IMG/VR virus record: IMGVR_UViG_2778261244_000002
Coordinates: 1 to 20,849 of that record
Length of the DNA: 20,849 nt
Strand: one strand, 5' to 3'
Source: a virus
Lineage: Duplodnaviria; Heunggongvirae; Uroviricota; Caudoviricetes
Shown: positions 1-19,915 of the stretch, piece after piece
Layout: each line of letters starts with the position of its first letter
Numbering within the stretch: the first letter of the stretch is position 1
Notes under the pieces: model-generated
Database searches by the model: none
Seen by the model: the letters and a program-made list of their open reading frames with translations, nothing else
What the model was told of the DNA's origin: nothing
Position numbers and translations under genes: made by a program

Positions 1-1053
1 TTACGGGGTAATGCCAACCGCTGCCGCCACTTTGTCGCCACTTGGCAGCGTTGCCAGAGGATTGAAACGGAGCGCCGTTTCCAGATGATCCGGTGCCAGA
101 TGTGCGTAACGCATAGTCATTTTTATATCGTGGTGTCCGAGAATTTTTTGTAAGGCCAGAATGTTTCCACCCGACATCATGAAGTGCGCCGCAAACGTAT
201 GGCGCAGAACGTGTGTGAGTTGACCGCGAGGGAGCACGATAGACGTTTTTTCCATCACGGATAAAAATTGAAAATAGCAGTCTGTGAAGAAATTGAACCC
301 ATCAAGCGCCATGATCTCTTCGTAAAGCTCTTTACTGATAGGGATGCTTCTGTTTTTCTTCCCCTTCGTTCTTACAAAGGTAATTCGGTATTTGGTCACC
401 TGTGAACGAGTAAGATTTACGGCTTCTCGCCAGCGTGCGCCTGTGCTTAAGCATATCTTAACTACCAGTGCCAGAATTGGGTCCTGACGTTTGCAATCAG
501 CCAGTAATTCAACAATCTGCTCATGGGTAAGCCATGCCATCTCTTTTTCTGCGATGGTGAATTTTCGCATGTTCTCCAGTGGGTTCGGATACGACCATTC
601 GCCCAGGCGGGATAGTTCGCTAAAAACACTACTTAGATAGCTTTGCTCCAGGTTGATGGTGACCGGGCTTGCTCCTTTCTTCCATTTCTCGCTGAAGTAG
701 ATCTCACCTGTCAGGCGTTTATCTCGATAGTGGGCAAACATTTTAGAGGTTAGATCAGTTGCAAGGGGATTGCCCAGAGCGTCAACCATCAGCAGCAATT
801 TGTCATAGACATGCTGCCCAGCTGTCAGTGATTTACCATGTAGTTTGAACCATAGCTCAACCACGTCTTTCAGGGTTCGACGATCCACTGATTCGCCCAG
901 CCAGGGCTTTGATTCGGTTTCTTCCATCGTGTGACGCTCAAAAGCCAGAGCTTCGCCTTTGGTGGCGAATTGTTTACGCACACGACGCCCACTTCGTCCG
1001 GCGGGGTAACATTCGCAAAGCCATTTCCCTGTGGTGAGTTTTCGTACTGCCAT
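1..1053 (-). CDS. int: Phage integrase, tyrosine recombinase (P2 Int-like)
   Basis: Translation carries the C-terminal tyrosine-recombinase motifs (HVLRHTFAAHFMMSGGNILALQKILGHHDIKMTMRYAHL) and overall resembles P2 Int. Start chosen at the internal ATG 1051-1053 (MAVRKLTTGKW...), preceded by a GGAGGG RBS; the track ORF reaching 1209 is judged an upstream over-extension. Stop at 1-3. Confidence 0.9.
   Translation of the reverse strand: MAVRKLTTGKWLCECYPAGRSGRRVRKQFATKGEALAFERHTMEETESKPWLGESVDRRTLKDVVELWFKLHGKSLTAGQHVYDKLLLMVDALGNPLATDLTSKMFAHYRDKRLTGEIYFSEKWKKGASPVTINLEQSYLSSVFSELSRLGEWSYPNPLENMRKFTIAEKEMAWLTHEQIVELLADCKRQDPILALVVKICLSTGARWREAVNLTRSQVTKYRITFVRTKGKKNRSIPISKELYEEIMALDGFNFFTDCYFQFLSVMEKTSIVLPRGQLTHVLRHTFAAHFMMSGGNILALQKILGHHDIKMTMRYAHLAPDHLETALRFNPLATLPSGDKVAAAVGITP
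20..41 (+). repeat. Candidate att core (attL copy) inside the 3' end of int
   Basis: Partner of the 17995-18016 repeat; lies within the last codons of int. Confidence 0.5.
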
Positions 1054-1084
1054 AAAAAATGCCCTCCAGTAGAGAGCATTTTTA

Positions 1085-1100
1085 CTGTATATATAACCAG
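1085..1100. promoter_or_regulatory. Candidate LexA box upstream of int
   Basis: CTGTATATATAACCAG (CTGT-N8-CCAG, AT-rich spacer) 32-47 nt upstream of the int ATG; one mismatch to the CTGT-N8-ACAG consensus. Confidence 0.35.
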
Positions 1101-1241
1101 TGTCAATGTATGAAATCCTACGACCATACATCTCACTGAAGCCATAATGAAGTTGGCTATTCTTTTTGCTATGTGAGCATGTAACTTTTGCGGTTAACCT
1201 GCGGCTCATTTTTATTTTAGACGCAGATATAAAAGCAAAAG

Positions 1242-1448: not shown

Positions 1449-2105
1449 CTATTTAACATACTTGACTGTTAAACTTATAATTTTACCAATTATTTCAATG
1501 TCTTCTATCTTGCATTCGAAGGCTCTGTTTCCACCCTCGACGAAGATTCTTCCACCGGGTAAACGAGTAATGTCACGGATCGTTATTTCGCCATCAATAC
1601 TTATTACCCATTTACCATCACGTATATCATCAAATTCTTTATCACAAATAAATTCAGAATTGTTATCTGTGATGACAAAAGGTTTTTTAAACGTAGAGGG
1701 TAGAAATCCCTTATCAAAAATATAAAAACCGTCTTTCTGCAATGCTCCATCAGACAATAAATATTTTTCTACTTCTATAGTATTTGTATTTGCTGATGCT
1801 TGCTTTGAACCATGCCCTGTTGTTAGCCAATTAAGCGAGGTGCCCGTTTCAAGGGCGCACTGGATTACCCAATCTGCTGGAAAAATATCACGCATATAGC
1901 GCGTTGCCATGGTGCTCTTAGAAACACCTAAATGATCACAGAGAGCCTGACGGGTACCGAACCCATATGCTTCAACTAAACGTTCTATGGCTTTCTTACC
2001 GCCGCTATTGAAATCCACAAGTCCTCCAAAGAAATCCAAAATTCGTTGACAGATTCCAAAAGCGATCTTAAAGTTGAGCCAGAAGTGTTCTTTTGGAGCC
2101 TTCAC
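1449..2105 (-). CDS. cI: 186-type CI immunity repressor (HTH N-terminal domain)
   Basis: N-terminal segment (ERLVEAYGFGTRQALCDHLGVSKSTMATRYMRD...CALETGTSLNWLTTGHG) resembles 186 CI. Divergent from the apl/cII operon and upstream of int. The first in-frame start is GTG at 2103-2105; the true start is uncertain (internal GTG or TTG possible). Confidence 0.8.
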   Translation of the reverse strand: MKAPKEHFWLNFKIAFGICQRILDFFGGLVDFNSGGKKAIERLVEAYGFGTRQALCDHLGVSKSTMATRYMRDIFPADWVIQCALETGTSLNWLTTGHGSKQASANTNTIEVEKYLLSDGALQKDGFYIFDKGFLPSTFKKPFVITDNNSEFICDKEFDDIRDGKWVISIDGEITIRDITRLPGGRIFVEGGNRAFECKIEDIEIIGKIISLTVKYVK

Positions 2106-2163: not shown

Positions 2164-2367
2164 ATGACACCTAACATTTCAATTACTCTGAATACACCAC
2201 ATGTCACAATCGAACGTTATAGCGAACTGACTGGCCTTTCTATTGATACGATTAACGACATGTTGGCTGATGGCCGACTACCTCGTCATCGTCTTCGTAA
2301 AGACAAAAAACGTGAAAAGGTAATGATTAACCTGGCTGCTCTGACTGTTGATGCTTTGTCTGCTTAA
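2164..2367 (+). CDS. apl: Apl/Cox-like excisionase and transcriptional regulator (67 aa)
   Basis: Small HTH-like protein ([22 protein letters not shown]), first gene of the rightward early operon and divergent from cI, as for 186 apl and P2 cox. Confidence 0.7.
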
Positions 2368-2431
2368 TAGATGTCTATTTTCGCAATAAGACGCTGAGTT
2401 CGATTTTGCGATAAGTTCGGAGTTGAAAACC

Positions 2432-2941
2432 ATGTTTGATTACCAAGTTTCCAAACATCCACATTTTGATGAAGCCTGTCGTGCATTCGCACTGCGCCAC
2501 AATCTGGTGCAACTGGCAGAACGTGCTGGCATGAATGTGCAGATTCTGCGGAACAAGCTGAACCCATCTCAACCTCATTTATTAACCGCACCAGAAATCT
2601 GGCTGCTTACCGATCTGACAGAAGATTCAACGCTGGTAGATGGTTTTCTGGCACAGATTCACTGCCTGCCATGTGTACCGATTAATGAGGTTGCAAAAGA
2701 GAAACTGCCGCATTACGTCATGAGCGCAACTGCAGAGATTGGACGTGTTGCAGCAGGTGCGGTATCTGGTGATGTAAAAACTAGTGCCGGTCGTCGTGAT
2801 GCTATCAGCAGCATTAACTCTGTAACACGACTGATGGCGCTGGCTGCTGTTTCATTGCAGGCCCGTTTACAGGCTAATCCTGCGATGGCGAGTGCAGTTG
2901 ATACCGTGACTGGCCTCGGTGCTTCATTCGGTTTGCTGTGA
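2432..2941 (+). CDS. cII: 186 CII-like lysogeny-establishment transcriptional activator
   Basis: Translation from [24 protein letters not shown]... is recalled as near-identical to 186 CII and gives the same 169-aa length; the ATG at 2432 is preferred over the track start at 2423. Confidence 0.85.
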
Positions 2942-2948
2942 GGTGCTT

Positions 2949-3149
2949 ATGCTGACGAAAGAACCATCATTTGCATCGCTGCTGGTAAAACAAAGCCCGG
3001 CAATGCACTACGGTCACGGCTGGATCATGGGTGAGGATGGTAAACGCTGGCATCCGTGCCGTTCACAAGATGAATTGCTGGCAGAACTATCTACGAAAAA
3101 ACGGGGGAACAAATGGCTATTGAAGGCGCTGCGGCTACTGTTCCATTAA
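2949..3149 (+). CDS. Hypothetical early protein (position of 186 fil/dhr region)
   Basis: ATG at 2949 preceded by a GAGGTG RBS; identity not recognised, only positional analogy. Confidence 0.5.
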   Translation: MLTKEPSFASLLVKQSPAMHYGHGWIMGEDGKRWHPCRSQDELLAELSTKKRGNKWLLKALRLLFH

Positions 3150-3454
3150 GCCCCGGTGAACGCCTGAATGGACTTAATCACATAGCGGAATTAAGGGCGA
3201 AAGTTTTTGGCCTGAATATTGAGTCAGAGCTTGAGCGGTTTATTAAAGATATGCGTGATCCACGGGATATCAATAACGAACAAAATAAACGAGCACTGGC
3301 AGCCATATTCTTTATGGCAAAAATTCCGGCTGAACGTCATAGCATCAGCATCAATGAGCTGACCACTGACGAAAAGCGGGAGTTGATTAAAGCAATGAAT
3401 CATTTTCGTGCAGTGGTGAGCTTATTTCCCAGACGGCTAACCATGCCGAATTAA
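3113..3454 (+). CDS. Hypothetical early phage protein (113 aa)
   Basis: ORF with a GGGGGA RBS upstream of ATG 3113; overlaps the preceding ORF by 37 nt; no recognisable domain. Confidence 0.5.
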   Translation: MAIEGAAATVPLSPGERLNGLNHIAELRAKVFGLNIESELERFIKDMRDPRDINNEQNKRALAAIFFMAKIPAERHSISINELTTDEKRELIKAMNHFRAVVSLFPRRLTMPN

Positions 3455-3521
3455 CCAACTAATGAAATTAATGGCGTAAACCCGCCGGGCATCCCTTTAT
3501 CTAAATTCAGGAGAATTGATT

Positions 3522-3755
3522 ATGCGTAATATTGAAATCCTCACGACTAAAACCGGACCGGATGATGCAGGGCTTAATATTTTACTGACAGAGGCTCGTC
3601 TGGAAGAACGCCGGGCAAGGGCTGAAGCAATGGCAGCTCGCCTTGATAGCCTGGCGTGTCATATCTCATCCCGTCAGCTAAACCACGTGGAAGCGGCAGA
3701 ACTGCTGCGTGTGACTGCTGAAGCAATCCAGAACGAAGCGCAGGAGATCCACTAA
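3522..3755 (+). CDS. Small phage protein, possibly DUF2732-like (P2 orf80-83 region)
   Basis: ATG at 3522 with a CAGGAG RBS 9 nt upstream; the track start at 3516 is TTG. Alanine/arginine-rich, helical-looking. Family assignment is from memory only. Confidence 0.55.
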   Translation: MRNIEILTTKTGPDDAGLNILLTEARLEERRARAEAMAARLDSLACHISSRQLNHVEAAELLRVTAEAIQNEAQEIH

Positions 3756-3982
3756 TGGCTGATGCAATGGATCTCGTACAGCAGCGCGTTGAAGAAGAAC
3801 GCCAGCGCCATATCCGTGCTGCCCGTGCCAAAACACCGGGCGTGTCTCGCGTGCTTTGCATTGAGTGTGAAGCGCCAATTCCGCCAGCACGCCGCCGTGC
3901 CATTCCGGGAGTGCAGCTTTGCATTACCTGCCAGGAAATCGCAGAGCTGAAAGGCAAACATTACAACGGAGGTGCTGTATGA
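3755..3982 (+). CDS. TraR/DksA-family C4 zinc-finger protein
   Basis: CIECEAPIP...CITCQ gives a CxxC-N17-CxxC spacing typical of TraR/DksA zinc fingers; start overlaps the previous stop (TAATG). Confidence 0.7.
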
Positions 3983-4281
3983 CAAGGGCAGTGCGTATCC
4001 ATCAATTAAAAATTGCACCTAAGTATTTCAACGCTGTGGTTGCAGGTCAAAAGACGGCTGAACTTCGTAAAGACGATCGTGGCTATAAAGTTGGTGATGT
4101 TCTTTCTCTTTGCGAATGGAAGCATGGCGTATTTACGGGTAGGGAATGGGCCGCTGTTATCTCTCATGTGCTTCCGGTTAATGACGTCATGGCAGTTTCA
4201 GAACAATGGGTGATGCTATCAATTCGCCCATTAACCCCATTAGAAGCTTTAGGATATGTTATTGCAGGAGGTGCTGTATGA
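3979..4281 (+). CDS. ASCH/DUF3850-like small protein
   Basis: ATG at 3979 overlaps the upstream stop (ATGA); translation [42 protein letters not shown] resembles PUA-like ASCH/DUF3850 proteins common in P2-like early operons. Confidence 0.55.
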
Positions 4282-5135
4282 GCACCATCCTGAAATGGGC
4301 GGGTAATAAAACTGCCATTATGTCCGAACTGAAAAAACATCTTCCTGCTGGCCCGCGACTGGTTGAACCTTTCGCGGGTTCCTGTGCTGTGATGATGGAG
4401 ACGGATTACCCCAGCTATCTTGTTGCGGATATTAATCCTGATTTAATCAACCTCTATAAAAAGGTTGCTGCTGATTGCGAGGCGTTTATATCTCGTGCCA
4501 GAGCTTTATTTGAGGAAGCAAACAGGGAGGTGGCTTATTACAACATAAGGCAGGAGTTTAATTACTCCACTGAAATTACTGATTTCATGAAAGCGGTATA
4601 TTTCCTGTATCTCAATCGTCATGGTTACCGTGGGTTATGTCGTTATAACAAGAGCGGGCATTTCAACATTCCATACGGTAATTATAAAAATCCGTATTTC
4701 CCTGAAAAAGAAATTCGCGCATTTGCAGAGAAAGCCCAGCGAGCAACGTTTATCTGCGCCAGCTTTGATGAAACGCTGGCGATGCTGCAGGTGGGGGATG
4801 TGGTGTATTGCGATCCGCCTTATGACGGTACGTTTTCCGGCTATCACACTGACGGCTTCACTGAAGATGACCAGTATCACCTGGCATCTGTTCTTGAATA
4901 TCGATCATCAGAAGGTCATCCAGTCATTGTTTCTAACAGTGACACATCCCTGATCCGTTCGCTGTATCGAAATTTCACTCACCACTACATCAAGGCAAAA
5001 CGCAGCATCGGCGTGTCGGCTGGCGAGAGTAAATCTGCAACAGAAATCATTGCTGTTTCCGGGGCGCGCTGCTGGGTGGGATTTGATCCTTCGTGTGGCG
5101 TAGATAGTTCTGCTGTGTACGAGGTGCGTGTATGA
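4278..5135 (+). CDS. dam: DNA adenine (N6) methyltransferase, Dam family
   Basis: N-terminal ILKWAGNK...EPFAGSCAV (AdoMet-binding motif) and catalytic DPPY ([12 protein letters not shown]); ATG at 4278 overlaps the upstream stop and its own stop overlaps the A start (ATGA). Confidence 0.85.
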
Positions 5136-7546
5136 GTCATGACGATATGAGCAACTCTAGCGGCTTTAACGAGGCCGCTGCAGCATTTTCATGGAACGGC
5201 CCGAAAAAGGCCATTAACCCTTATCTGGACCCGGCGGAAGTTGCTCCGGAGTCTGCACTTTTAAACCTGATCACTCTGTACGCTGCCGATAATGAGCAGG
5301 AACAGCTGCGCCGCGATGCACTGAGTGAGCAGGTCTGGGAGCGTTATTTCTTTAATGAATCTCGTGATCCTGTCCAGCGCGAAATGGAGCAGGATAAGCT
5401 CATTAGCCGGGCAAAGCTAGCGCATGAACAGCAGCGTTTTAACCCGGACATGGTCATTCTGGCGGACGTCAGCGCCCAGCCCACCCATATTAGCAAGCCG
5501 CTGATGCAACGTATCGAATACTTCAGCAGCCTGGGCAGGCCAAAGGCTTATTCCCGCTATTTGCGTGAGACGATTAAGCCATGTCTGGAGCGACTGGATT
5601 GTGTACGTGACAGTCAGCTGTCTGCTTCTTTCCGTTTTATGGCAAGCCATCAAGGGCTGGAGGGCCTGCTGATTCTGCCTGAAATGAGTCAGGATCAGGT
5701 GAAACGCCTGTCCACCCTGGTAGCTGCGCATATGAGCATGTGCCTTGATGCAGCTTGTGGCGATTTGTATGCCACCGATGACGTTAAGCCAGAAGAAATC
5801 CGCAAGACATGGGAAAAGGTGGCGGCGGAAACCCTGCGTCTGGATGTCATCCCACCTGCGTTTGAGCAACTCCGTCGGAAAAGAAACCGCCGTAAACCCG
5901 TGCCCTATGAACTCATTCCGGGTTCGCTGGCGCGTATGTTGTGCGCCGACTGGTGGTATCGGAAATTATGGAAGATGCGTTGCGAATGGCGGGAAGAGCA
6001 GTTGCGTGCTGTCTGCCTGGTCAGCAAAAAAGCATCTCCCTATGTCAGCTATGAAGCCGTGATGCATAAACGTGAGCAGCGCCGTAAGTCGCTGGAGTTT
6101 TTCCGTTCTCATGAACTGGTGAACGAAGACGGCGACACGCTGGACATGGAGGATGTGGTAAACGCCAGCAGCAGCAACCCTGCGCATCGCCGCAATGAGA
6201 TGATGGCCTGTGTTAAAGGTCTGGAGCTTATCGCGGAAATGCGCGGTGACTGCGCCGTTTTCTACACTATCACCTGTCCGTCACGTTTCCATTCCACGCT
6301 CAACAACGGCAGACCCAACCCGACCTGGACAAATGCGACGGTAAGACAAAGCAGCGATTATATGGTCGGCATGTTTGCTGCATTTCGTAAGGCAATGCAC
6401 AAAACCGGGTTGCGCTGGTATGGCGTGCGGGTGGCTGAGCCGCACCATGACGGTACTGTGCACTGGCATCTCATGTGCTTCATGCGTAAAAAAGACCGCC
6501 GCGCCATCACTGCATTACTGCGTAAGTTTGCCATCCGTGTAGACCGCGAGGAGCTGGGCAACAACACGGGGCCACGCTTTAAGTCTGAGCTGATTAACCC
6601 GCGCAAAGGAACACCGACAAGCTACATCGCGAAATACATCAGTAAGAACATTGACGGGCGTGGTCTGGCTGGCGAGATCAGCAAGGAAACGGGTAAATCC
6701 CTGCGTGATAACGCCGAATACGTTAATGCCTGGGCGTCTCTGCATCGTGTTCAGCAGTTCCGCTTCTTTGGTATTCCGGGACGTCAGGCTTACCGTGAAC
6801 TTCGCTTGCTGGCTGGTCAGGCGGCAAGGCAACAGGGTGACAAAAAAGCAGGTGCGCCGATACTGGATGACCCGCGCCTTGATGCCATCCTGGCTGCTGC
6901 TGATGCTGGTTGTTTTGCCACCTACATCATGAAGCAGGGCGGCGTACTGGTTCCCCGTAAATATCACCTTATCAGAACCGCTTATGAAATCAACGAAGAG
7001 CCGACCGCCTATGGCGATCACGGCATTCGTATTTATGGCATCTGGTCACCCATTGCAGAGGGCAAGATCTGCACTCATGCAGTGAAGTGGAAAATGGTTC
7101 GTAAGGCCGTTGACGTTCAGGAGGCGGTAGCCGACCAGGGCGCTTGCGCCCCTTGGACTCGTGGCAATAACTGTCCCCTTGCTGAAAATTTGAACCAACA
7201 AGGGAAAGACAAATCAGCTGATGGGGACTCCAGAACGGATATTACCCGTATGAATGACAAGGAGTTGCATGATTACCTGCACAGTATGAGCAAAAAAGAG
7301 CGCCGGGAACTGGCTGCAAGGTTACGCCAGGTGAAACCGAAACGGCGTAAAGACTACAAACAGCGAATTACAGACCATCAGCGACAGCAGCTCGTCTATG
7401 AACTGAAGTCCAGGGGATTTGATGGCAGCGAGAAAGAAGTCGATTTGCTCCTTCGCGGCGGCAGTATTCCGTCAGGAGCAGGCCTGCGTATCTTCTATCG
7501 GAACCAGCGTCTGAAGGAAGATGATAAGTGGCGGAACCTATATTAA
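5132..7546 (+). CDS. A: Rolling-circle replication initiation endonuclease (P2 gpA-like)
   Basis: 804-aa protein with an HUH-type motif ([13 protein letters not shown]) and a tyrosine-containing YIAKYISK segment; lies between the early genes and the accessory region as in P2/186. Confidence 0.9.
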
Positions 7547-7613
7547 TTACGCGGGTTAACAATTCGTGCTCTTAATAATACCAGGCATATCAGGCCGATG
7601 AACGTAAAAAAAC

Positions 7614-7660
7614 GTTTTACATCAGTAAGATTATTATATACTGTAAATATAAACAGTGGT
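7614..7660 (+). promoter_or_regulatory. SOS promoter with LexA box (CTGT-N8-ACAG at 7641-7656)
   Basis: TTTACA (-35-like) then TATACT overlapping CTGTAAATATAAACAG, a perfect CTGT-N8-ACAG LexA box about 45 nt upstream of the 7699 ATG. Confidence 0.7.
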
Positions 7661-7698
7661 TATGTGTACAGTATTGTTTTGGTGTCATAGGAGGAAAG

Positions 7699-7887
7699 AT
7701 GCAGGACTATTTTTTGGAGTCTTTGAAGCTCCAGCGCATTGATTTTTTTCTTAAGCTTGTAGCGGCTAGTGAGTGTAGTGATGAAGAGAAGGGGCTGGCT
7801 CTGCAGTGGGTTTCTGAATTGACTGATGAACTCATGGCAAAAATCAGAAGCCACGAATACAACCGCTCAATGGATGTCATCAGCTGA
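7699..7887 (+). CDS. Tum-like (antirepressor N-terminal part?) small protein, LexA-regulated
   Basis: Strong AGGAGG RBS; immediately downstream of the LexA box and 10 nt upstream of the DinI-like gene. Functional call is positional analogy to the 186 tum operon. Confidence 0.55.
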   Translation: MQDYFLESLKLQRIDFFLKLVAASECSDEEKGLALQWVSELTDELMAKIRSHEYNRSMDVIS

Positions 7888-7897
7888 GGTGACTTTT

Positions 7898-8131
7898 ATG
7901 CGCATTGAAATAATGATCGATAAAGAGCAGAAGATTAGCCAGTCTACCCTGGACGCCCTTGAATCCGAGCTTTACCGCAATCTGCGCCCCCTGTATCCCA
8001 AAACGGTAATTCGCATTCGCAAAGGTAGCTCTAACGGTGTGGAACTAACCGGACTGCAACTGGATGAAGAAAGAAAACAAGTGATGAAAATTATGCAGAA
8101 GGTGTGGGAGGACGACAGCTGGCTGCATTAA
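7898..8131 (+). CDS. dinI: DinI-family protein
   Basis: MRIEIMIDKEQKISQSTLDALESELYRNL...MKIMQKVWEDDSW aligns by eye with E. coli DinI (MRIEVTIAK...ALAGELSRR...ILQETWESADDW); GAGGTG RBS. Confidence 0.8.
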   Translation: MRIEIMIDKEQKISQSTLDALESELYRNLRPLYPKTVIRIRKGSSNGVELTGLQLDEERKQVMKIMQKVWEDDSWLH

Positions 8132-8137
8132 GATGTT

Positions 8138-8175
8138 GCCCCCAGGAGGATTCATTCTGATGGGGGCTAGTTTGG
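8138..8175 (+). terminator. Putative hairpin terminator after the dinI-like gene
   Basis: Inverted repeat GCCCCCA...TGGGGGC followed by TAGTTTG; weak T-tract. Confidence 0.35.
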
Positions 8176-8321
8176 GCAATGAGTGAAATAAGGCGTAAGG
8201 TGGGCGGTTATTTTGATAAGTGATCGTCCGCTTTGTGTCAGAAGCAGAAGTGGGAGTGTCTGAGACTCTCTAAAAGTTGATGATTCACTTACAAAACCAT
8301 TTTCCTGATGGATGCTTACAC

Positions 8322-8657
8322 TTACGAATGATCATTCTGTTTAGTCTTCATGAGAAAATCCCGAATCTTTGCCAAGTTTGAATTTTCGGGGATTGAATCC
8401 ATGTACGGATCACGCTCAAACACTAATTGCTCAGATTCAACGAAAGCCTGCCACTCTACTGGGTCTAGCTCAAATCCCATTGCTGTCATATCACTTTCAT
8501 CTTCCCCCTCGATCCAGTGGACTAAATAAAACAATTCATCATCAGGAGAATCATCCTCACCATCAACAATATCAACATCGGTTACAGTGATACGTAGGGT
8601 GGGATCGATTTTTGAGACATAAATTCCTAACTGTGGTATAGGGGGAATATTGTTCAT
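8322..8657 (-). CDS. Highly acidic hypothetical protein (111 aa)
   Basis: AAAGGAG RBS before the ATG at 8657; strongly acidic composition (GEDDSPDDE, EGEDESD); no recognised domain; oriented toward the dinI-like gene. Confidence 0.6.
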   Translation of the reverse strand: MNNIPPIPQLGIYVSKIDPTLRITVTDVDIVDGEDDSPDDELFYLVHWIEGEDESDMTAMGFELDPVEWQAFVESEQLVFERDPYMDSIPENSNLAKIRDFLMKTKQNDHS

Positions 8658-9036
8658 GGAAACTCCTTTTATTGGTGTTTGCTATTTGAATAAAAATACG
8701 CCAAACAGAGTGTTAACTGTGAATATGGAAAGAATCGTTGTAAGTACCCCGCTTAGGTGTCCCATTCTATTTTAGAGGTTCTCGTGCATATGGATTATGT
8801 TATCTGAAAGTTAACTTCCGCTTCCCGTTCACAGCGAACATTCATCTTTGTAAACCCGTATGATCCGTTTTTCAAGTGGCCATTCAGATACGGATTTTTA
8901 CTTCTTTGACAGTGCATGACTATGCTGCATGAAATCGCATGATCGATTGAGGATCGTCTTTGCTCAGATCTGCCAGAACTGGCGGGCTTTTGCTCATGTC
9001 ATGCATGTGCATGAAAACCACTGCATAAAGCGGGCA

Positions 9037-9060
9037 GGCGTGGCGGGGATACGAGCGCGC
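9037..9060 (+). other. cos-like GC-rich motif (tentative)
   Basis: GGCGTGGCGGGGATACGAGCGCGC resembles the start of the P2/186 cohesive end as remembered (GGCG[A/T]GGCGGGGAAAGCA...), within an otherwise AT-rich intergenic region; the match is partial. Confidence 0.25.
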
Positions 9061-9136
9061 GGATGAGTAATCTATACCATCATCTTGATAAAAGTATTAA
9101 AAATGGTAAATTTAGCAAGCTACATATTAAAGGAAA

Positions 9137-10534
9137 ATGAAGATGTATGAAGTAATTGATATATCAGCGCAGGAAATTAAGGCGTTGTTAAACACTGCTG
9201 AAGATCATTTCAATGATTTTAAAAGTAAGCAAATAGCGCCTAATAAATTACAAGAAACTTTTGTAGCATTTGCAAATGCTGATGGCGGTAATATTTATAT
9301 TGGCATAGAGGATGCAGCTTCGGGGAGAGAGCGTATATCTGGTTTCAATGAGCCAGAGGAAGCGAATGCTATTATTTCGACCTTATTGGAAAATACTAAT
9401 CCAGCTGTTGAGAATGTTGAGGTGGAATATTTAAGAACACCTTCCAATGGATTGATTTTACATGTGGATATACCAAAAAGCCCCAAAGTTCATTACACGG
9501 CCTCTGGCGATTGCTTTATAAGAGCTAACGCGCAAAAATTAAAAATAAAAGGTGAGCGAATTACTCAGCTTTCCTATTCTAAAGGCGCAGAACCTTATGA
9601 AAAAAAAGCAGTGGATATAGTTGAAGTAGAAGATATTCTTGAAAGTGAATATTATTCTGATTATTTACGTAGAATAGGAACGACTCAGTCACCGAGAGTT
9701 TTTTTAAAAAAACAACGACTGTTAACTAAGAAAGATGGTGAATTTGTCCCGAATGTAGGCTGTGTTTTACTATTTGATGAAGAGCCTCAAGGATGTTTAG
9801 ATACTCGATGTGCTGTAAAAGTATATCGGCTTAGAACAACTGAAGCAGAGTACAAACGTGAACAATTACAGGAAGATCCTGTAACGATTGAGGGGCCACT
9901 TGAAGTGGTTATTTTAAATACAATAGCAAAAGTAAAAGAATATGTTGATGGAGCATCATTCAAAGACGGCGAAAATCTAGTAAAACTTAGCTATCCTGCA
10001 GAAGCATTGAAGGAAATATTAGTTAATGCTGTTATTCATAGAGATTACAGCCAAAAGGATGATGTGCACGTAAAAGTTTATGACAACCGGATTGAAGTTC
10101 AAAGTCCAGGCAGATTGCCTGGATACATGACTATTAATAATTTATATGAAGAGCGGTTTTCTCGTAATCCAAATTTAGTGCGTTTGTTGCATAAACTTCC
10201 CAATCCAGTGAACCATGATATTGGTGAGGGGCTTGATACTGCAAAAAATGAATTGCGTAAGGCCGGGTTGGTAGCCCCGGTATTTGAAGAAAGGGGCAAT
10301 AATTTTGTTGTAATAGTTAAGCATCAAACAATAGCCTCAATTGAGGATGTGATTATTAATTATTTTAAAGAAAATCCAACGGGACAGCTCACAAATAAGT
10401 TGGTTAGACAATTAAGTGGCGAAGATGACCTTCAAAAGGTTAAAAAGGCATTGCAAAAGTTAAGGGAGGAGGGCGTAATAAAACCATTAGATCCTAACGC
10501 GAATCCTTTCAAATTTAAATATATTAAAGCTTAA
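9137..10534 (+). CDS. Schlafen-like AlbA_2 domain + HATPase_c_4-like domain + C-terminal wHTH protein (COG2865-type); candidate anti-phage cargo
   Basis: N-terminal EDHFNDFKS...ETFVAFANADGGNIYIGIED matches the AlbA_2/Schlafen-like signature; central LKEILVNAVIHRDYSQKDDVHVKVYDNRIEVQSPGRLPG matches HATPase_c_4; C-terminus looks like a winged HTH. AT-rich relative to flanks; followed by a hairpin terminator. The start may be the second ATG at 9143, which has better RBS spacing. Confidence 0.75.
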   Translation: MKMYEVIDISAQEIKALLNTAEDHFNDFKSKQIAPNKLQETFVAFANADGGNIYIGIEDAASGRERISGFNEPEEANAIISTLLENTNPAVENVEVEYLRTPSNGLILHVDIPKSPKVHYTASGDCFIRANAQKLKIKGERITQLSYSKGAEPYEKKAVDIVEVEDILESEYYSDYLRRIGTTQSPRVFLKKQRLLTKKDGEFVPNVGCVLLFDEEPQGCLDTRCAVKVYRLRTTEAEYKREQLQEDPVTIEGPLEVVILNTIAKVKEYVDGASFKDGENLVKLSYPAEALKEILVNAVIHRDYSQKDDVHVKVYDNRIEVQSPGRLPGYMTINNLYEERFSRNPNLVRLLHKLPNPVNHDIGEGLDTAKNELRKAGLVAPVFEERGNNFVVIVKHQTIASIEDVIINYFKENPTGQLTNKLVRQLSGEDDLQKVKKALQKLREEGVIKPLDPNANPFKFKYIKA

Positions 10535-10585: not shown

Positions 10586-11614
10586 TTATAGTTTATAGTG
10601 TTCGAAAGTTATTGCTTCTTCATTGATCCAATAGTTGAGATCTTGTAACTTCTTCTGAAGTGGCATCAGTTCATTCCGAACAAATACCCGGCTGGCCTTC
10701 TCCACATCCCCAAACCCTCCAACATTATTAGGCATAATCCCCATCATTTGCGGCGGCACGCGGTGCGCAGCCATCATGTCGTCGCGGCTGACATTTTTGA
10801 TATTCAGAAATTCATCCTTCGCCGCGACTTCTGATAACGGGATGATTTGAAGCCCGTCCTTTTTGCCGTTAGGCGAGTACATAAACAGATTGCGGAAGTT
10901 GCCTGGACCTTTGGCGCTTTTCATTGCGTTGCGGAGGTTGTTCACATCCTCCTGGTTCTGCGCGGCATCGGTCATGTACATGATGAAGCCTGCATGGCTG
11001 CCGTTGATGTAATACTTACGGCGGAACAGCGTGGCGGACTCGTTGAGCAGGGCTGACGGAATGGCAGAAAGATAGCCGGGCAGGCCGTAGATCTCCTGGT
11101 TAATGTCCGGTTCCATCAGATGAAAAATGCTGCCTTTCGTGAACTGATACGGCTGGGTTGTCATACCGTATTGCACAAACCAGTAGGTATCCAGGTCTAA
11201 CCCGCGTCGGGTGTATTTTGCCAGAGCAGGCTCAAGGGCGATAACTTCACCGAAGCGGTTCGTGCGTTTCTCCAGGTAGGCGTTACCAAATACCAGATAG
11301 TCCTGCACAAAACGTGAAAAAGCCTGCTGGCTGAGCAGCGGATGGGGGATGTAGGTACTGGTCAGAATGTTGCATTTCACCGCAATTGGTGAACTGTGAT
11401 GCACGGCGGCGCGGAAGGTGCGTGCCAGTCCGTCAAAGCTTACTGGCGGCTCATACCAGCGATCTGTCTGTACGCATTCCACATAGTCCAGTAGTTCGCG
11501 GCGGTCCAGAACAGGAACGGGATCACCGAAGCTGAATGCTTCGGCTGTAGTTTGACTTTTATGCTGGATCTGGTTCGTCGACGCAGCGCGGTTCTTCTTA
11601 CTCTTTCCCATCAA
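10586..11614 (-). CDS. Q: Portal (capsid) protein, P2 gpQ-like
   Basis: 342-aa protein of gpQ-like length, translationally coupled to the upstream P remnant (its start overlaps the P stop), in the P-Q leftward arrangement of P2. Confidence 0.85.
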   Translation of the reverse strand: MMGKSKKNRAASTNQIQHKSQTTAEAFSFGDPVPVLDRRELLDYVECVQTDRWYEPPVSFDGLARTFRAAVHHSSPIAVKCNILTSTYIPHPLLSQQAFSRFVQDYLVFGNAYLEKRTNRFGEVIALEPALAKYTRRGLDLDTYWFVQYGMTTQPYQFTKGSIFHLMEPDINQEIYGLPGYLSAIPSALLNESATLFRRKYYINGSHAGFIMYMTDAAQNQEDVNNLRNAMKSAKGPGNFRNLFMYSPNGKKDGLQIIPLSEVAAKDEFLNIKNVSRDDMMAAHRVPPQMMGIMPNNVGGFGDVEKASRVFVRNELMPLQKKLQDLNYWINEEAITFEHYKL

Positions 11615-12285
11615 AAAATCTCCACAATATTACTGGTATTGGCGGACTCGCCCTGCAGTGGTTCGTTAAACAGTGCGTGCATTGTTGCCCAGGCCAGATC
11701 GGCGTGGCTGGCTTCTTCGCTGCGGCTGGCTTCATAGGTCGGGCGGTTGCCGCTGGCGGTGGTGGCGCGACGGATTGCCATGAATGACTGCGCAATGTCG
11801 GTGTGCCCGGCGTCAAACTCCAGACGGCGGTGGCTGATAATGTCGTAGGCCTTGAGCACCAGGGCGTTTTTAACGTTGGGGTTGTAGACAAACTCCCGGA
11901 CGGCAGGAAAGAATGCTTTCACGTTCTCGTAAACCCCGTGACCAACGCCGGTTGAGTCGATACCGATATAAGTCACGTTGTACTGTTCGGTCAGTTTTTT
12001 GATGGCGTCAGCCTGAGCGCGGAAGTCCATCCCGCGCCACTGGTGACGCTCAAGAATGCGGAATTTACCGCCCGGTACGGCTGGCGGTGCCACCACCACG
12101 CATCCGGCACTGTCGCCGTTCTGAGTACCTTTTGCGGGGTCATAACCGATCCATACTTCGCGCCAGCCAAACGGGCGCAGGGCCAGTGCATGGAAGTCGG
12201 TCCAGATTTCCCAGCTGTCCACCATGCACGCCTGCAGTTCGCTGAGCGGGAACACGGACGCGAGATCGTCCACGAACTCGCACAT
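11611..12285 (-). pseudogene. P: Terminase large subunit (gpP-like), C-terminal nuclease-domain fragment only
   Basis: Only about 224-263 aa of an expected ~590-aa terminase remain (open frame reaches at most 12402); the sequence contains the RNaseH-like nuclease region (GYDPAKG...GIDSTGVGHGV) and lacks the N-terminal ATPase. Confidence 0.7.
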
Positions 12286-12545
12286 CAGCAGGTTCTGGTA
12301 TCCAGCGTGACGATACCGGGGAAGTGCAGGCCGTGGAGCTTGTCGTGCGTGGACGTCACAAAGAAGTGGATTCCGGCGAGTGGAAGACGGGCGAAAGCAA
12401 CACTACCAAAGTGACCAGTACCAACAGCTACGCGAAGCTGACCATCAATGGTGAGGTGCTCTATGAAGTGGACCTTATCAACATGGTGGAAATTGTGGAC
12501 GGTGTGGACCTGATGGAAGCGCACCGCAACGCCCTCGGCCTCTGA
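12246..12545 (+). pseudogene. Probable tail-tube (FII-like) C-terminal fragment
   Basis: Open frame without a credible start, ending 55 nt upstream of gene E; called on position (FII precedes E in P2) and tail-protein-like sequence (KLTINGEVLYEVDLINMVEIVDGVDL). Confidence 0.3.
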
Positions 12546-12599
12546 TGTATCTGAACGGCGCGGGATACCGCGCCAGAACCCAATTGACAGGACAGCAAA

Positions 12600-12902
12600 A
12601 TGAGCGATAAGCAGACTGAAAAGACTATTCAACTGGATACCCCCATCAAGCGCGGTAAAACAGAAATCACCGAAATTGTGCTGCGTAAACCGCAGTCCGG
12701 TGCGCTGCGCGGTACACGCCTGCAGGCCATTATGGATATGGATGTAAACGCGATGATGACCGTGATCCCCCGCATCTCCAGTCCGGCACTGACCGCACAG
12801 GAAATTGCAGAGATGGACCCGGCAGATCTCACTGCCATGTCGGTTGAGGTTGTCACTTTTTTGTTGAAGAAGTCGGTGCTTGCCGGTTTACCGACAGCCT
12901 GA
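12600..12902 (+). CDS. E: Tail assembly chaperone gpE
   Basis: 100-aa ORF directly upstream of the tape measure gene with the slippery heptamer TTTTTTG at 12857-12863 near its end. Confidence 0.8.
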   Translation: MSDKQTEKTIQLDTPIKRGKTEITEIVLRKPQSGALRGTRLQAIMDMDVNAMMTVIPRISSPALTAQEIAEMDPADLTAMSVEVVTFLLKKSVLAGLPTA

Positions 12903-13036
12903 CGGTTGACGATCTGGTGGCAGATATCGCCACCATTTTTCACTGGCCGCCATCCGTTACTGACGTTATGCCGCTGACCGAAGTGCTGGAATGGCGGTAT
13001 AAAGCGATTCAGAGAAGCGGGGCCAACGATGAGTGA
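12600..13036 (+). CDS. E': gpE+E' -1 frameshift fusion product
   Basis: After a -1 slip at T_TTT_TTG (12857-12863) the -1 frame stays open to a TGA at 13034-13036, adding about 58 aa (...VEEVGACRFTDSLTVDDLVADIATIFHWPPSVTDVMPLTEVLEWRYKAIQRSGANDE) and overlapping the T start. Confidence 0.65.
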
Positions 13037-16000
13037 TAATAACCTGCGCCTTCAGGTCATTCTTAATGCGGTTGACAAGCTCACCCGCCCATTTCGATCC
13101 GCGCAGGCCAGTTCAAGAGAACTGGCTGCTGCTGTCAAAAAATCCCGCGATGCAATAAAGCAGCTTGATCAGGCCGGGAGCAGTCTGGACAGCTTCCGAA
13201 AGCTGCAGGCAGAAAATCAGAAATTAGGCGACAGGCTGAACTATGCCCGCCAGCGTGCAAATTTGCTCAGTCAGGAACTGGGAGCGATGGGGCCGCCTTC
13301 GCAACGTCAGGTTGTTGCTCTGGGCCGTCAACGGCTGGCTGTTCAGCGCCTGGAAGAACGCCAGAAAAAGCTGCAGCAGCAGACGGCGCTTGTGCGTGCT
13401 GAACTGTACCGGGCGGGAATTTCTGCGAAAGATGATGCGGGAGCAACTGCCCGTTTAGCCCGTGAAACATCACGTTATAACCAGGAATTGTCGAAACAGG
13501 AGGCGCGGCTGAAGCGACTGGGTGAAGCTCAGCGCAGGATGAATGCGGCGCGTGCCAGTTATGCCCGTTCGCTGGAGGTGCGCGATCGTATTGCAGGAGC
13601 CGGAGCCACTACCACGGCTGCAGGGCTGGCAATGGGGACGCCAGTGATGGCGGCAGTAAAAAGCTATACCAGCATGGAAGATGCCATGAAAGGTGTGGCA
13701 AAGCAGGTCAATGGTCTGCGTGACGATAATGGAAACCGTACTGCACGTTTTTATGAAATGCAGGATGCCATCAAGGCTGCCAGCGAACAGTTGCCGATGG
13801 AAAACGGTGCGGTGGACTTCGCTGCACTGGTTGAAGGTGGTGCGCGCATGAACGTCGCAGACCCTGACGACAGCTGGGAAGACCAGAAACGTGACCTGCT
13901 GGCCTTCGCCAGTACGGCAGCAAAGGCGGCAACAGCCTTTGAGCTGCCAGCGGATGAACTGTCAGAAAGTCTGGGGAAAATCGCCCAGCTCTACAAAATA
14001 CCTACCCGCAATATTGAACAGCTCGGCGATGCGCTGAACTATCTGGATGATAACGCCATGTCGAAAGGGGCGGACATCATTGATGTGATGCAACGTCTGG
14101 GCGGTGTGGCTGACCGTCTGGATTATCGTAAAGCGGCGGCACTGGGTTCCACCTTTCTGACACTGGGCGCTGCGCCGGAGGTTGCAGCCAGTGCAGCAAA
14201 CGCGATGGTGCGTGAATTGTCCATTGCCACCATGCAAAGCAAGAGTTTCTTTGCAGGGATGAATCTGCTGAAGCTCAATCCTGAAGTGATTGAAAAGCAG
14301 ATGACGAAGGATGCGATGGGAACTATCCAGCGTGTGCTGGAGAAGGTGAACGCACTGCCGCAGGACAAGCGTCTGTCTGCCATGACCATGTTGTTTGGTA
14401 AAGAGTTTGGCGATGACGCGGCGAAACTGGCAAACAACCTGCCGGAACTACAGCGCCAGCTAAAACTGACAGCGGGCAATGATGCGCTCGGTTCCATGCA
14501 GAAAGAATCCGACATCAACAAGGACTCACTTTCTGCTCAGTGGTTGCTGGTTAAAACCGGAGCGCAGAATACCTTCAGCAGCCTGGGCGAAACGCTGCGC
14601 CAGCCGCTGATGGATATTCTGTACACGGTGAAAAGCGTTACGGGAGCGTTGCGTCGCTGGGTGGAAGCTAACCCGGAACTCACGGGCACACTGATGAAAG
14701 TAGCCGCTATTGTGGCTGCGGTTACCGTAGGCCTCGGCACCTTGGCTGTGGCGCTGGCTGCAGTGCTGGGGGCGCTGGCAGTCATCCGTCTGGGATTCTC
14801 TGTGCTGGGCATCAAAACGTTACCTTCCGTTACGGCAGCAGTAACACGAACTAGCAGCGCGTTGTCCTGGCTGGCTGGCGCTCCACTGGCAGTGCTGCGA
14901 CGCGGGCTTGCTTCATCGGGTAACGCAGCGGGTTTACTTACTGCGCCGTTGTCGTCTTTGCGCCGTACGGCATCACTGACGGGAAATGTCCTGAAAACTG
15001 TAGCAGGTGCGCCGGTTGCACTATTGCGGTCTGGATTATCCGCTTTACGTGCTGTTGCTGTGATGTTTATGAATCCTCTGGCGGTACTGCGCGGTGGACT
15101 GGCTGCCGCAGGCGCGGTGCTTCGTGTGCTTGCATCTGGTCCGCTGGCGATGCTGCGCGTTGCCCTGTATGCCATATCTGGTCTGTTAGGTGCTCTGCTC
15201 AGTCCGATAGGTCTTGTGGTTACTGCACTGGCGGGCGTGGCGCTGGTTGTCTGGAAATACTGGCAACCCATCACCGCATTTCTCGGTGGCGTGGTGGAAG
15301 GATTCAAAGCGGCGGCAGGTCCCATCAGTGCTGCATTCGAACCACTTAAGCCTGTGTTTCAGTGGATTGGCGACAAAGTACAGGCGCTGTGGGGCTGGTT
15401 TACTGATCTGCTGACGCCCGTTAAGTCGACCTCTGCCGAACTGCAGAGTGCAGCGGCAATGGGGCGGCGATTCGGGGAGGCACTGGCGGAAGGGCTGAAT
15501 ATGGTCATGCATCCGCTGGACTCCCTGAAATCCGGCGTTTCCTGGTTGCTGGAGAAGCTCGGTATTGTCAGTAAAGAGGCCGCAAAGGCAAAACTGCCGG
15601 AAAGCGTGACGCGTCAGCAACCTGCGACGGTGAATGCAGACGGTAAAGTGATGATGCCATCGGGTGGTTTTCCATCATGGGGATATGGCTTTGCGGGGAT
15701 GTATGACAGCGGCGGGTATATCCCGCGCGGGCAGTTTGGCATCGTCGGTGAAAACGGGCCGGAAATTGTTAACGGCCCGGCAAATGTGACCAGCCGGAGA
15801 AATACAGCTGCACTGGCTGCCGTTGTTGCCGGAATGATGGGCGTTGCTGCCGCGCCAGCAGAGCTTCCACCGTTGCACCCTTTGGCACTTCCCGCGAAAG
15901 GTGGAGAAGCAATTGTGAGTCGCGCAGCCACTGTGCCACTCGTTCAACGGATTGAGGCACCGACGCAGATCATCATTCAGACGCAGCCAGGACAAAGTGC

Positions 16001-18016: not shown

Positions 18017-18074
18017 TCGTAAAAAAACAGTGTTTCTAACATCATGATTTTAAACAGCTTAAATTTCAGGCAAC

Positions 18075-18117
18075 AAAAAACCCATCAACCTTGAACCGAA
18101 ATGGCGGGGTTGATGGG
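18075..18117 (-). terminator. Rho-independent terminator (minus strand), downstream of ybjL
   Basis: Perfect 10-bp inverted repeat CCCATCAACC / GGTTGATGGG with a 16-17-nt loop, followed on the minus strand by TTTTTT. Confidence 0.6.
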
Positions 18118-18229
18118 CTCCACAAAATGGGGACATCAAAGAAAAGCAGTGGCACTAATTAAGACTGATGCCCTGCGGAAAAGTTCTGCGGTTGTGCAAA
18201 AAAATTTCATTTTCAGGGCAACTTCAGTT

Positions 18230-19915
18230 TTATCCTAATCCTGGCCATACCATGACGATGATTGTCCCTGCCAGCGTCAGCAGGACGTTGGCGATTGCAT
18301 AGGTGCCCGCATAGCCCAGCGCCGGGATGTTACTGCGAGCTGTATCACTGATGATCTCCATTGCCGGCGCGCAGGTACGTGCGCCCATCATTGCGCCGAA
18401 CAACAGCGCGCGGTTCATTCGCAATACATAAGCACCGAACAAGAAACAGATAACCACGGGCACCAGACTGACAATCAATCCGGCAATCAACATCTGACCG
18501 CCAATCGCGCCCAGGCCGTTATTAATACCGCTACCGGCGCTCAGACCAACGCCTGCCATAAACACCATCAAGCCGAACTCTTTCACCATGCTTAATGCAC
18601 CCTGCGGAATGTAACCGAAGGTCGGGTGGTTAGCACGCATAAAGCCCAGCATAATTCCGGCGAATAACAACCCGGCAGCGTTCCCCATGCCGAAACTGAA
18701 TGTGCTGAACTGGAAGGTGATCATCCCGATCATCAGCCCAATAACAAAGAAGGCGCAGAATGCCAGCAGGTCAGTGACCTGGCTGTGAATCGAGATAAAG
18801 CCGATGCGATCGGCGATGGTTTTTACGCGGCGGGCATCGCCGCTGACTTGTAAAACGTCACCTTTGTTAAGCACGACGTTGTCATCTATCGGCATCTCAA
18901 TCTGGCTACGAATGACGCGGTTAAGGAAGCAACCGTGATCGGTCAACTTCAGTTGTGCGAGACGTTTACCTACAGCGTTATGGTTTTTAACGACCACTTC
19001 TTCAGTGACGATACGCATGTCGAGAAGGTCACGATCGAAAACTTCTTTACCGTTACGGAAGCTGGGATCGAGTCGGGCATGGGCGTCGGGATAGCCTACC
19101 AACGCTATTTCATCGCCCATTTGTAGCACGGCATCACCGTCTGGATTTGCCAGAATCCCGTTACGTCGAATACGTTCAATGTAGCAGCCGGTTTGTCGAT
19201 AAATACCCAGTTCACGCAGATTTTTGCCGTCGGTCCAGGCCACCAGTTCCGGGCCGACGCGATAGGCGCGGATCACCGGTAAATAAACCTTACGGTTGGC
19301 ATCAGTGTCCAGGCCACGTTCGCGGGCGATTTGCTGGGCGCTGGTCTGTAAGTCCTGATGCTGCAATTTCGGCAAGTAACGCGCACCAACAATCAAACTC
19401 ACCAGACCGATTAAATAGGTTAAGGCATACCCGAGGCTCAGATTATCCAGTGCCAGTGAGAGCTGCCTGCTTTCCATGCCGGAATGACGCAGTGTATCGC
19501 CAGCACCGACCAGAACCGGTGTCGACGTCATAGAGCCTGCTAACATACCGGCCGTCAGGCCAATATCCCAGCCAAACAGCTTACCTAACCCTAAGGCGAT
19601 CACCAGCGCACTGCCAACCATCACCAGTGCTAACATTAGGTAATTTTTCCCATCGCGAAAAAAAATGGAAAAAAAGTTCGGTCCGGCTTCGACCCCGACG
19701 CAGAAAATAAACAGCATAAAGCCAAGATTAAGCGCATCGGTGTTAATGCTGAAATGTTGTTGGCCTAATAACAGCGATACGACTAAAACGCCAATGGAAT
19801 TACCCAGTTGGATCGAACCAAGTCGTAACTTTCCGAGACATAGCCCAAGCGCGAGGACCACAAATAATAACAGAATGTAATTCCCATTTAACAATTCGGC
19901 GACGTTTATATTCAC
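18230..19915 (-). CDS. ybjL: Putative AAE-family transporter YbjL (TrkA-C domains)
   Basis: 561-aa membrane protein recognised as E. coli YbjL from its N-terminus ([24 protein letters not shown]...) and length. Confidence 0.85.

Follow-up and report, generated by a model that had tools for sequence, protein, structure and literature searches.

A Dam-family adenine methyltransferase gene overlapping replication gene A in the early operon of a 186/Fels-2-like prophage remnant

Introduction

The Dam protein of Escherichia coli (EcoDam) and DpnM are GATC enzymes. For a Dam encoded by a phage, the standard rationale is that full methylation counters GATC-sensitive restriction and host surveillance, and permits growth in Dam-poor hosts. 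T4 Dam and the Dam domain of P1/P7 Dmt are phage orphan GATC adenine methyltransferases that share their fold with the protein described here, to which they are ~23% (T4) and ~35% (P7) identical. They differ from our gene in coming from the genomes of virulent phages or plasmid prophages and in lacking a coupled gene for a rolling-circle initiator.

Closer relatives are found among the 186-related prophages, where the dam gene is already known: it was first reported in 1990 and is routinely annotated. As it stands in the reference list of PMC7826664, the title of a 1990 paper on the retron Ec67 element speaks of ‘Dam methylase functions’, and the Ec67- and 186-related entries of that list include Hsu, Inouye & Inouye 1990, PNAS 87:9454, and Dodd & Egan 1996, Virology 219:115. 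The Ec67 element is described as an element of the same kind, a 186-related prophage whose early region includes a Dam gene. The Dam proteins of Felsduovirus, Xuanwuvirus and Gegavirus (the phages compared were Salmonella RE-2010, Escherichia Cartapus, and Klebsiella ST11-VIM1phi8.4 and ST15-OXA48phi14.1) share 72-96% protein identity with ours and are annotated as DNA adenine methylase. Their genes lie directly 5' of gene A with an overlapping stop and start, as in the DNA studied here.

According to PMC4659465, the M.EcoMIV enzyme of the E. coli ST131 strain EC958 is a ‘Dam homolog’ from a prophage and is silent. We considered equating our gene with M.EcoMIV (EC958_1101) and dropped the equation, as the ~100 kb scanned had been chosen by a guessed gene order and without a locus-tag match. 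The sole methylase in that scan was a 254-aa protein located in a Mu-like prophage; as it belongs to a different family, the RT-PCR result of PMC4659465 is not transferable to the gene reported here.

Results

The dam gene lies in the early region of a prophage that has lost most of its late genes

The window, that is, the whole stretch of 20,849 nucleotides that we analyzed, holds a 186/Fels-2-like Peduoviridae prophage. Its gene order, as determined with Pfam, is the canonical one, and its DNA is 95-96% identical to that of Peduoviridae phages. The prophage label given in a preliminary description of this DNA was right, with the addition that the prophage is a deletion remnant whose late region is largely gone. 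The landmarks are the following:

1-1209, minus strand: integrase (Pfam)
1449-2105, minus strand: CI repressor, gene intact (Pfam)
2046-2074, plus strand: pR-like sigma-70 promoter, TTGACA-17-TAAAGT (consensus scan only)
3979-4281, plus strand: DUF3850/ASCH (PUA-like) gene (PF12961 at 2e-23; start as in RefSeq)
4278-5135, plus strand: dam, a 285-aa orphan Dam-family N6-adenine DNA methyltransferase (translation, PF02086, TIGR00571, PDB matches, AF2 model)
5132-7546, plus strand: replication gene A, an HUH nicking endonuclease of 804 aa (PF05840 Phage_GPA, E 2e-126; RefSeq ‘replication endonuclease’)
9137-10534, plus strand: cargo gene of 465 aa with Schlafen AlbA_2 and HATPase_c_4 domains (domain search)
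18072-18150, minus strand: RybB sRNA gene (Rfam RF00110, 105 bits)

On the plus strand, the order is Apl/Cox, CII, a Fil-like short ORF (annotated Fil in relatives), DUF5347, DUF2732, a DksA/TraR zinc-finger gene, DUF3850, dam, A and DinI. The cargo gene, the portal, a terminase fragment, the tail genes E, T, U and D, ogr, and the host genes rybB and ybjL come after DinI. rybB adjoins the ogr end of the prophage, before ybjL (18230-19915), and it probably marks the attachment site or its close vicinity. A deletion within 10586-13029 has left a junction at ~12299-12301, where the 3' third of terminase gene P runs into the interior of the tail tube gene. What is left of gene P is its C-terminal 224 codons (11611-12285, minus strand), and the prophage in the window has no genes for the capsid/head, lysis, baseplate, tail fibre or sheath. 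Given the fusion of terminase P to the tail tube gene, no virions can be made.

No restriction endonuclease gene was found beside dam: its neighbors are DUF3850 and gpA, and all genes within 2164-8131 belong to phage early-region families. With no nuclease partner adjoining, dam is an orphan and not part of a type II restriction-modification system of the DpnII/MboI type.

Across 2204-9061, the window matches a prophage of E. coli FHI_NMBU_11 at 99.8% identity, and the dam DNA of the two is 100% identical. The two prophages differ in the cargo of their P2-type hotspot, which lies between A/DinI and the portal: FHI_NMBU_11 carries a retron Ec67-family reverse transcriptase there, and the window carries the AlbA_2/HATPase_c_4 cargo gene. 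The latter gives weak PADLOC matches to pAgo/Aga-associated models and is a possible defence gene. At 12321-15090 of FHI_NMBU_11 the early region meets tail fibre genes beside a recombinase-family (invertase-like) gene, which suggests a large inversion or internal rearrangement in that prophage. Upstream of the cargo gene in the window, non-coding DNA contains GATC at 8862 and at 8941, 8952 and 8967 (the last three inside 30 bp), next to a terminator-like hairpin at 8969-8986; the cluster could be a Dam-sensitive regulatory site or be due to chance. We also considered GATC avoidance or clustering as a footprint of methylation. The prophage has 60 sites, with an unremarkable observed/expected ratio of 0.76 that is in the range of other 4-bp palindromes. 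The DNA itself gives no sign of methylation-linked selection.

dam encodes a full-length member of the Dam family

The dam reading frame runs from the ATG at 4278 to the TGA at 5133-5135, with 285 codons and no internal stop. The longest in-frame ORF in a mechanical list begins at ATG 4206 (309 aa), a start that is ruled out by the N-termini of the homologues and by the position of the Shine-Dalgarno sequence, a GGAGG 6 nt 5' of the ATG at 4278. The start at 4278 is used by RefSeq and by all phage homologues, and the N-terminus of the family is strongly conserved (M1, T3 and L5-T12 invariant, I4 nearly so). Comparison with the RE-2010 homologue (95% nucleotide identity) gives a dN/dS of 0.115, and that with a Klebsiella phage homologue (72% identical) gives 0.161; the dam family is under purifying selection. 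An Rfam scan returned no non-coding RNA match beneath the ORF. Antisense ORFs across the locus are short (51-81 aa), and a consensus scan gave a lone antisense promoter-like match (4708-4681), within chance expectation.

Regarding family membership, PF02086 covers the protein end to end (profile positions 1-253 of 253, E 9e-77, 258.6 bits against a cut-off of 22), and the TIGR00571 ‘dam’ model scores 325.1 bits (cut-off 114.85). The equivalog model for chromosomal Dam, NF008152, gives 289 bits, under its cut-off of 441; we therefore regard the protein as a phage Dam-family paralogue and not as host dam. The top PADLOC model is ‘orphan methyltransferase’ (5e-112). In a PDB search the best match was E. 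coli Dam (4e-74), along with DpnM and T4 Dam. EcoDam (PDB 2G1P, 4RTJ and others) has the same fold, the same alpha order of motifs, the DPPY and the AdoMet motif, and is 46% identical over 268 aligned positions. Within the protein we located four elements:

4365-4391, plus strand: motif I, AdoMet binding, E30-P-F-A-G-S-C-A-V38 (alignments)
4614-4688, plus strand: target-recognition beta-hairpin, residues 113-137, with Y117, R118, L120, R122, P132, N135 and Y136 (mapping onto EcoDam)
4812-4823, plus strand: motif IV, catalytic DPPY, residues D179-Y182 (sequence, translation, alignment)
5058-5132, plus strand: family-specific C-terminal tail, residues 261-285 (alignments, AF2)

Motif I aligns with EPFVGAGSV of EcoDam and DLFCGGL of T4Dam and is invariant in 44 family members; its last Gly is replaced in our protein by a Cys that is itself invariant across the family. 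The recognition hairpin comes next and motif IV last, which is the alpha order. DPPY is conserved in 111-112 of 113 relatives. An AF2 model built from 44 family members (pLDDT 71, pTM 0.73) superposes on EcoDam (E 1e-25, TM 0.73-0.85), then on DpnM and then on T4Dam. Confidence in this model is low only at the N-terminus, in the recognition hairpin and two loops, and over the C-terminal tail. In crystal structures of Dam, the N-terminus and the hairpin are not known to be ordered unless DNA is bound. The preliminary description had proposed a full-length methyltransferase of the D12 class with a DPPY motif, and this identity was borne out by every test that we applied (profiles, PDB, PADLOC, alignments and the AF2 fold), the catalytic and AdoMet motifs both being intact on alignment.

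The gene is common, and it is also carried by viable phages, namely RE-2010, Cartapus and many Klebsiella phages. Public contigs that encode the exact protein, under the name ‘DNA adenine methylase’, number at least 1000, the gene is present in 1239 of 5426 complete E. coli genomes (~23%), and more than 6600 homologues are found at E <= 1e-20, those at the top of the list spanning Enterobacterales. Public databases also contain Dam::gpD and Dam::gpA fusion proteins, which probably come from deletion remnants of other prophages or from frameshifts, and which probably explain the gpA proteins found inside the 90% cluster that holds the dam protein.

Overlapping junctions place dam in an early operon that is probably under CI control

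The preliminary description also placed dam in the early operon with ATGA overlaps on both flanks, and the sequence agrees: the overlaps lie at 4278-4281 and 5132-5135, the gpA downstream belongs to PF05840, and the neighbors are those of a phage early region. The two junctions read as follows:

4267-4281, plus strand: DUF3850/dam junction GGAGGTGCTGTATGA, with a GGAGG Shine-Dalgarno, a 6-nt spacer and the dam ATG over the DUF3850 TGA (sequence)
5121-5135, plus strand: dam/A junction, with a GAGG Shine-Dalgarno (5121-5124) and ATGA (5132-5135) (sequence)

The DUF3850 ORF stops with the TGA at 4279-4281, giving a 4-nt stop/start overlap with dam. The ATG of gene A at 5132 likewise overlaps the dam stop by 4 nt, with the GAGG 7 nt before it. 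Altogether, four stop/start overlaps follow one another across 3755-5135. Phage RE-2010 has the identical 15-mer at its junction between the zinc-finger gene and dam; both RE-2010 (ATGA) and Klebsiella phage ST15-OXA48phi14.1 (GTGA) retain the dam/A overlap, and the dam overlaps are also kept in ev015 and MLG42. Such 4-nt overlaps with an internal Shine-Dalgarno persist in relatives whose protein identity is as low as 72%. Conserved overlaps, with a Shine-Dalgarno inside the upstream gene, fit translational coupling, and dam is probably coupled in this way to gene A.

The DUF3850 gene just upstream appears to be an accessory element of this chain. The RefSeq start at 3979 was adopted for it, and a TTG start at 3919 was set aside. 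An exact 15-bp direct repeat, with copies at 3968-3982 and 4267-4281, flanks the 299-bp gene, and the repeat is the coupling junction itself (Shine-Dalgarno plus ATGA). The 15-mer is single-copy in RE-2010; phages of that type have no DUF3850 cassette, and their dam overlaps the DksA/TraR-like zinc-finger gene directly. From this arrangement, the DUF3850 gene looks like a cassette won or lost via the 15-bp repeat with the chain of coupled genes left unbroken. The cassette is present in 76 of the 5426 complete E. coli genomes, as against the 1239 with dam. The order DUF3850-dam-A recurs in three diverged lineages, namely the window, Quadragintavirus ev015 and Yersinia phage vB_YpM_MLG42. In the record of the last phage (PP599993.1), an intact dam ORF of 285 aa occupies 2788-3645, in an unannotated gap between DUF3850 and gene A.

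We also considered Dam and DUF3850 as a writer/reader pair. DUF3850 occurs without dam in the P2-like phages PHB48 and YpM_50, it turns up in unrelated phages by the hundred (T7-like, T1-like and Enterococcus phages among them), and only ~6% of dam-bearing E. coli prophages carry it. On these sequence comparisons, the two genes do not form an obligate pair, and a functional pairing is not supported.

Concerning transcription, the pR-like site at 2046-2074 adjoins the divergent CI repressor gene, and a consensus scan found no other promoter-like site on the plus strand between it and dam. Because of this lack of an intervening promoter-like site, and by analogy with phage 186, we expect dam to be expressed only on derepression; dam is probably transcribed together with gene A, once CI repression is lifted, which would set it apart from the constitutive E. 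coli Dam. The arrangement bears on a different role, in which dam would be expressed in the lysogen as a lysogenic-conversion factor and the altered GATC methylation of the host would affect mismatch repair, oriC/SeqA timing or Dam-dependent phase variation. In line with this possibility, dam is intact although the prophage has lost all head and lysis genes and most tail genes, other deletion remnants retain it as Dam::gpD fusions, and close to a quarter of complete E. coli genomes carry it. However, the pR-like promoter lies ~2.2 kb 5' of dam, the genes of the operon overlap tightly, dam has no promoter-like site of its own, and the CI repressor gene is intact. Gene A and other early genes are kept as well, so that the place where the deletion fell, and not selection for dam, accounts for the retention, and it is general knowledge that the host already methylates nearly all of its own GATC sites. 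We consider a lysogenic-conversion role unlikely. The suggestion, made in the preliminary description, that the enzyme modulates Dam-dependent processes of the host is likewise weakened, as dam appears to lack a separate promoter and to sit in the pR operon repressed by CI.

The recognition hairpin predicts GATC specificity

The preliminary description called for a prediction of specificity from the target-recognition region, and we carried it out by mapping the hairpin onto EcoDam. Residues Y117, R118, L120, R122, P132, N135 and Y136 of our protein correspond to Y119, N120, L122, R124, P134, R137 and Y138 of EcoDam. In EcoDam, R124 reads the guanine of the fourth base pair, L122 and P134 contact the third, K9 and Y138 read the first, Y119 intercalates and N120 hydrogen-bonds a base (PMC4417163). 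Six of these seven GATC-reading residues are identical in our protein (K6, Y117, L120, R122, P132 and Y136), and the six are invariant or nearly so among 113 family members. Two hairpin positions differ from EcoDam: N120 is replaced by R118, an Arg shared by all 113 family members, and R137 by N135, the family having N (93) or H (20) at this position. Alignment places a Ser of T4Dam at the N120 position, and the T4Dam record annotates m6A at GATC. Since a GATC enzyme has Ser there, this position is not diagnostic of specificity. Given the conserved contact residues, the intact catalytic and AdoMet motifs and the low dN/dS, we strongly predict an active GATC-specific adenine methyltransferase. 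Preference for flanking sequence, methylation of near-cognate sites or processivity could differ from those of the host enzyme, because of R118, the N or H at the R137 position and the extra C-terminal tail.

T2/T4 Dam-h variants hypermethylate, acting on GATC plus near-cognate sites. One could argue, along these lines, that R118 and N135 give our enzyme a specificity other or broader than GATC, be it for near-cognate sites or for another tetranucleotide. The fixation of the Arg and the N/H at the R137 position would be compatible with such a change, as would the NF008152 score under the cut-off for host Dam. EcoDam, moreover, reads the first G:C pair least accurately, and the contact involved is not conserved across the Dam family (PMC4417163). 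Against this, our protein retains the counterpart of R124, the residue on which discrimination of the fourth base pair chiefly depends, along with those of L122 and P134 for the third pair, of K9 and Y138 for the first and of the intercalating Y119; T4Dam retains GATC methylation with a Ser at the N120 position, and the nearest solved structures are all of GATC enzymes. A different or broader specificity is thus quite improbable. Of the three functions suggested in the preliminary description, methylation of a different site is the least likely, given the conservation of the GATC-contact residues. Another of the three, protection from restriction that is sensitive to GATC methylation, would be the standard rationale for such a gene.

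A clade-specific tail extends to the start of gene A

Unlike EcoDam and T4Dam, the protein ends in an extra tail. The tail is specific to the P2-like phage Dam clade; its motif W266-x-G-x-D270-x3-G274-x-D276 is at least 90% conserved in 113 relatives, and AF2 gives the tail a pLDDT below 50 and predicts it to be disordered. Either the tail or R118 could tune the behavior of the enzyme, and neither counts against a Dam function. A bolder reading is that the P2-like phage Dam clade is functionally distinct from host Dam. According to it, the invariant Arg that replaces the orphan-thymine-contacting Asn120, and the disordered tail, encoded up to the start of gene A, would tether Dam to gpA or the rolling-circle replisome, or else relax its site or flank preference. 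Nascent phage DNA would thereby be methylated as it is replicated, and the recurrent upstream DUF3850 (PUA-like) gene would be a partner that senses nucleic-acid modification. We regard a clade with such distinct functions as very unlikely.

Discussion

The reading that we favor, with a probability of roughly 0.85, is that of an active orphan phage-type GATC Dam, encoded in the early lytic (pR) operon, made on derepression and maintaining the methylation of phage DNA. It is carried by the anatomy of the gene, its family, its place in the operon, the purifying selection on it and the conservation of the residues for catalysis and GATC contact. From these we infer enzymatic activity, GATC specificity, the timing of expression, coupling and the biological role. 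The enzyme would transfer a methyl group from AdoMet to the N6 of adenine in GATC, and its gene would be cotranscribed with that of the replication initiator A in the pR operon. It would be made only once CI repression lifts, while phage DNA is being replicated. Fast-replicating phage DNA would in this way stay fully GATC-methylated where host Dam is limiting or absent, and packaged genomes would be protected against MboI/DpnII-type restriction and be read as ‘self’ by Dam-dependent systems of the host.

For the copy in the window, the protective role is moot, because this prophage is a deletion remnant unable to make virions; dam is here a conserved passenger without obvious present use. That the gene should be a functionless relic of a dead prophage, whose intact frame merely reflects a recent deletion, would suit the fused terminase and tail tube genes and the identity of its DNA to that of copies in intact-looking prophages, which implies a young remnant, but this is a statement on present usefulness and not on the encoded product, and it is highly improbable given the identical protein on so many contigs, the purifying selection on the family and an intact CI gene, early operon and gene A from which dam can probably still be expressed on derepression.

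As a discovery the gene is of little value, since standard pipelines name it correctly and about one in four complete E. coli genomes carries it. The DUF3850 cassette comes with a coupling junction of its own and illustrates well how an accessory gene can enter a phage operon without breaking the coupling. According to our prediction, lysogens of dam-bearing phages of this family, whose hosts are already Dam-positive, carry a second GATC methylase that is normally silent, and prophage induction could, through this second enzyme, confound work with dam knockouts or methylation-sensitive cloning.
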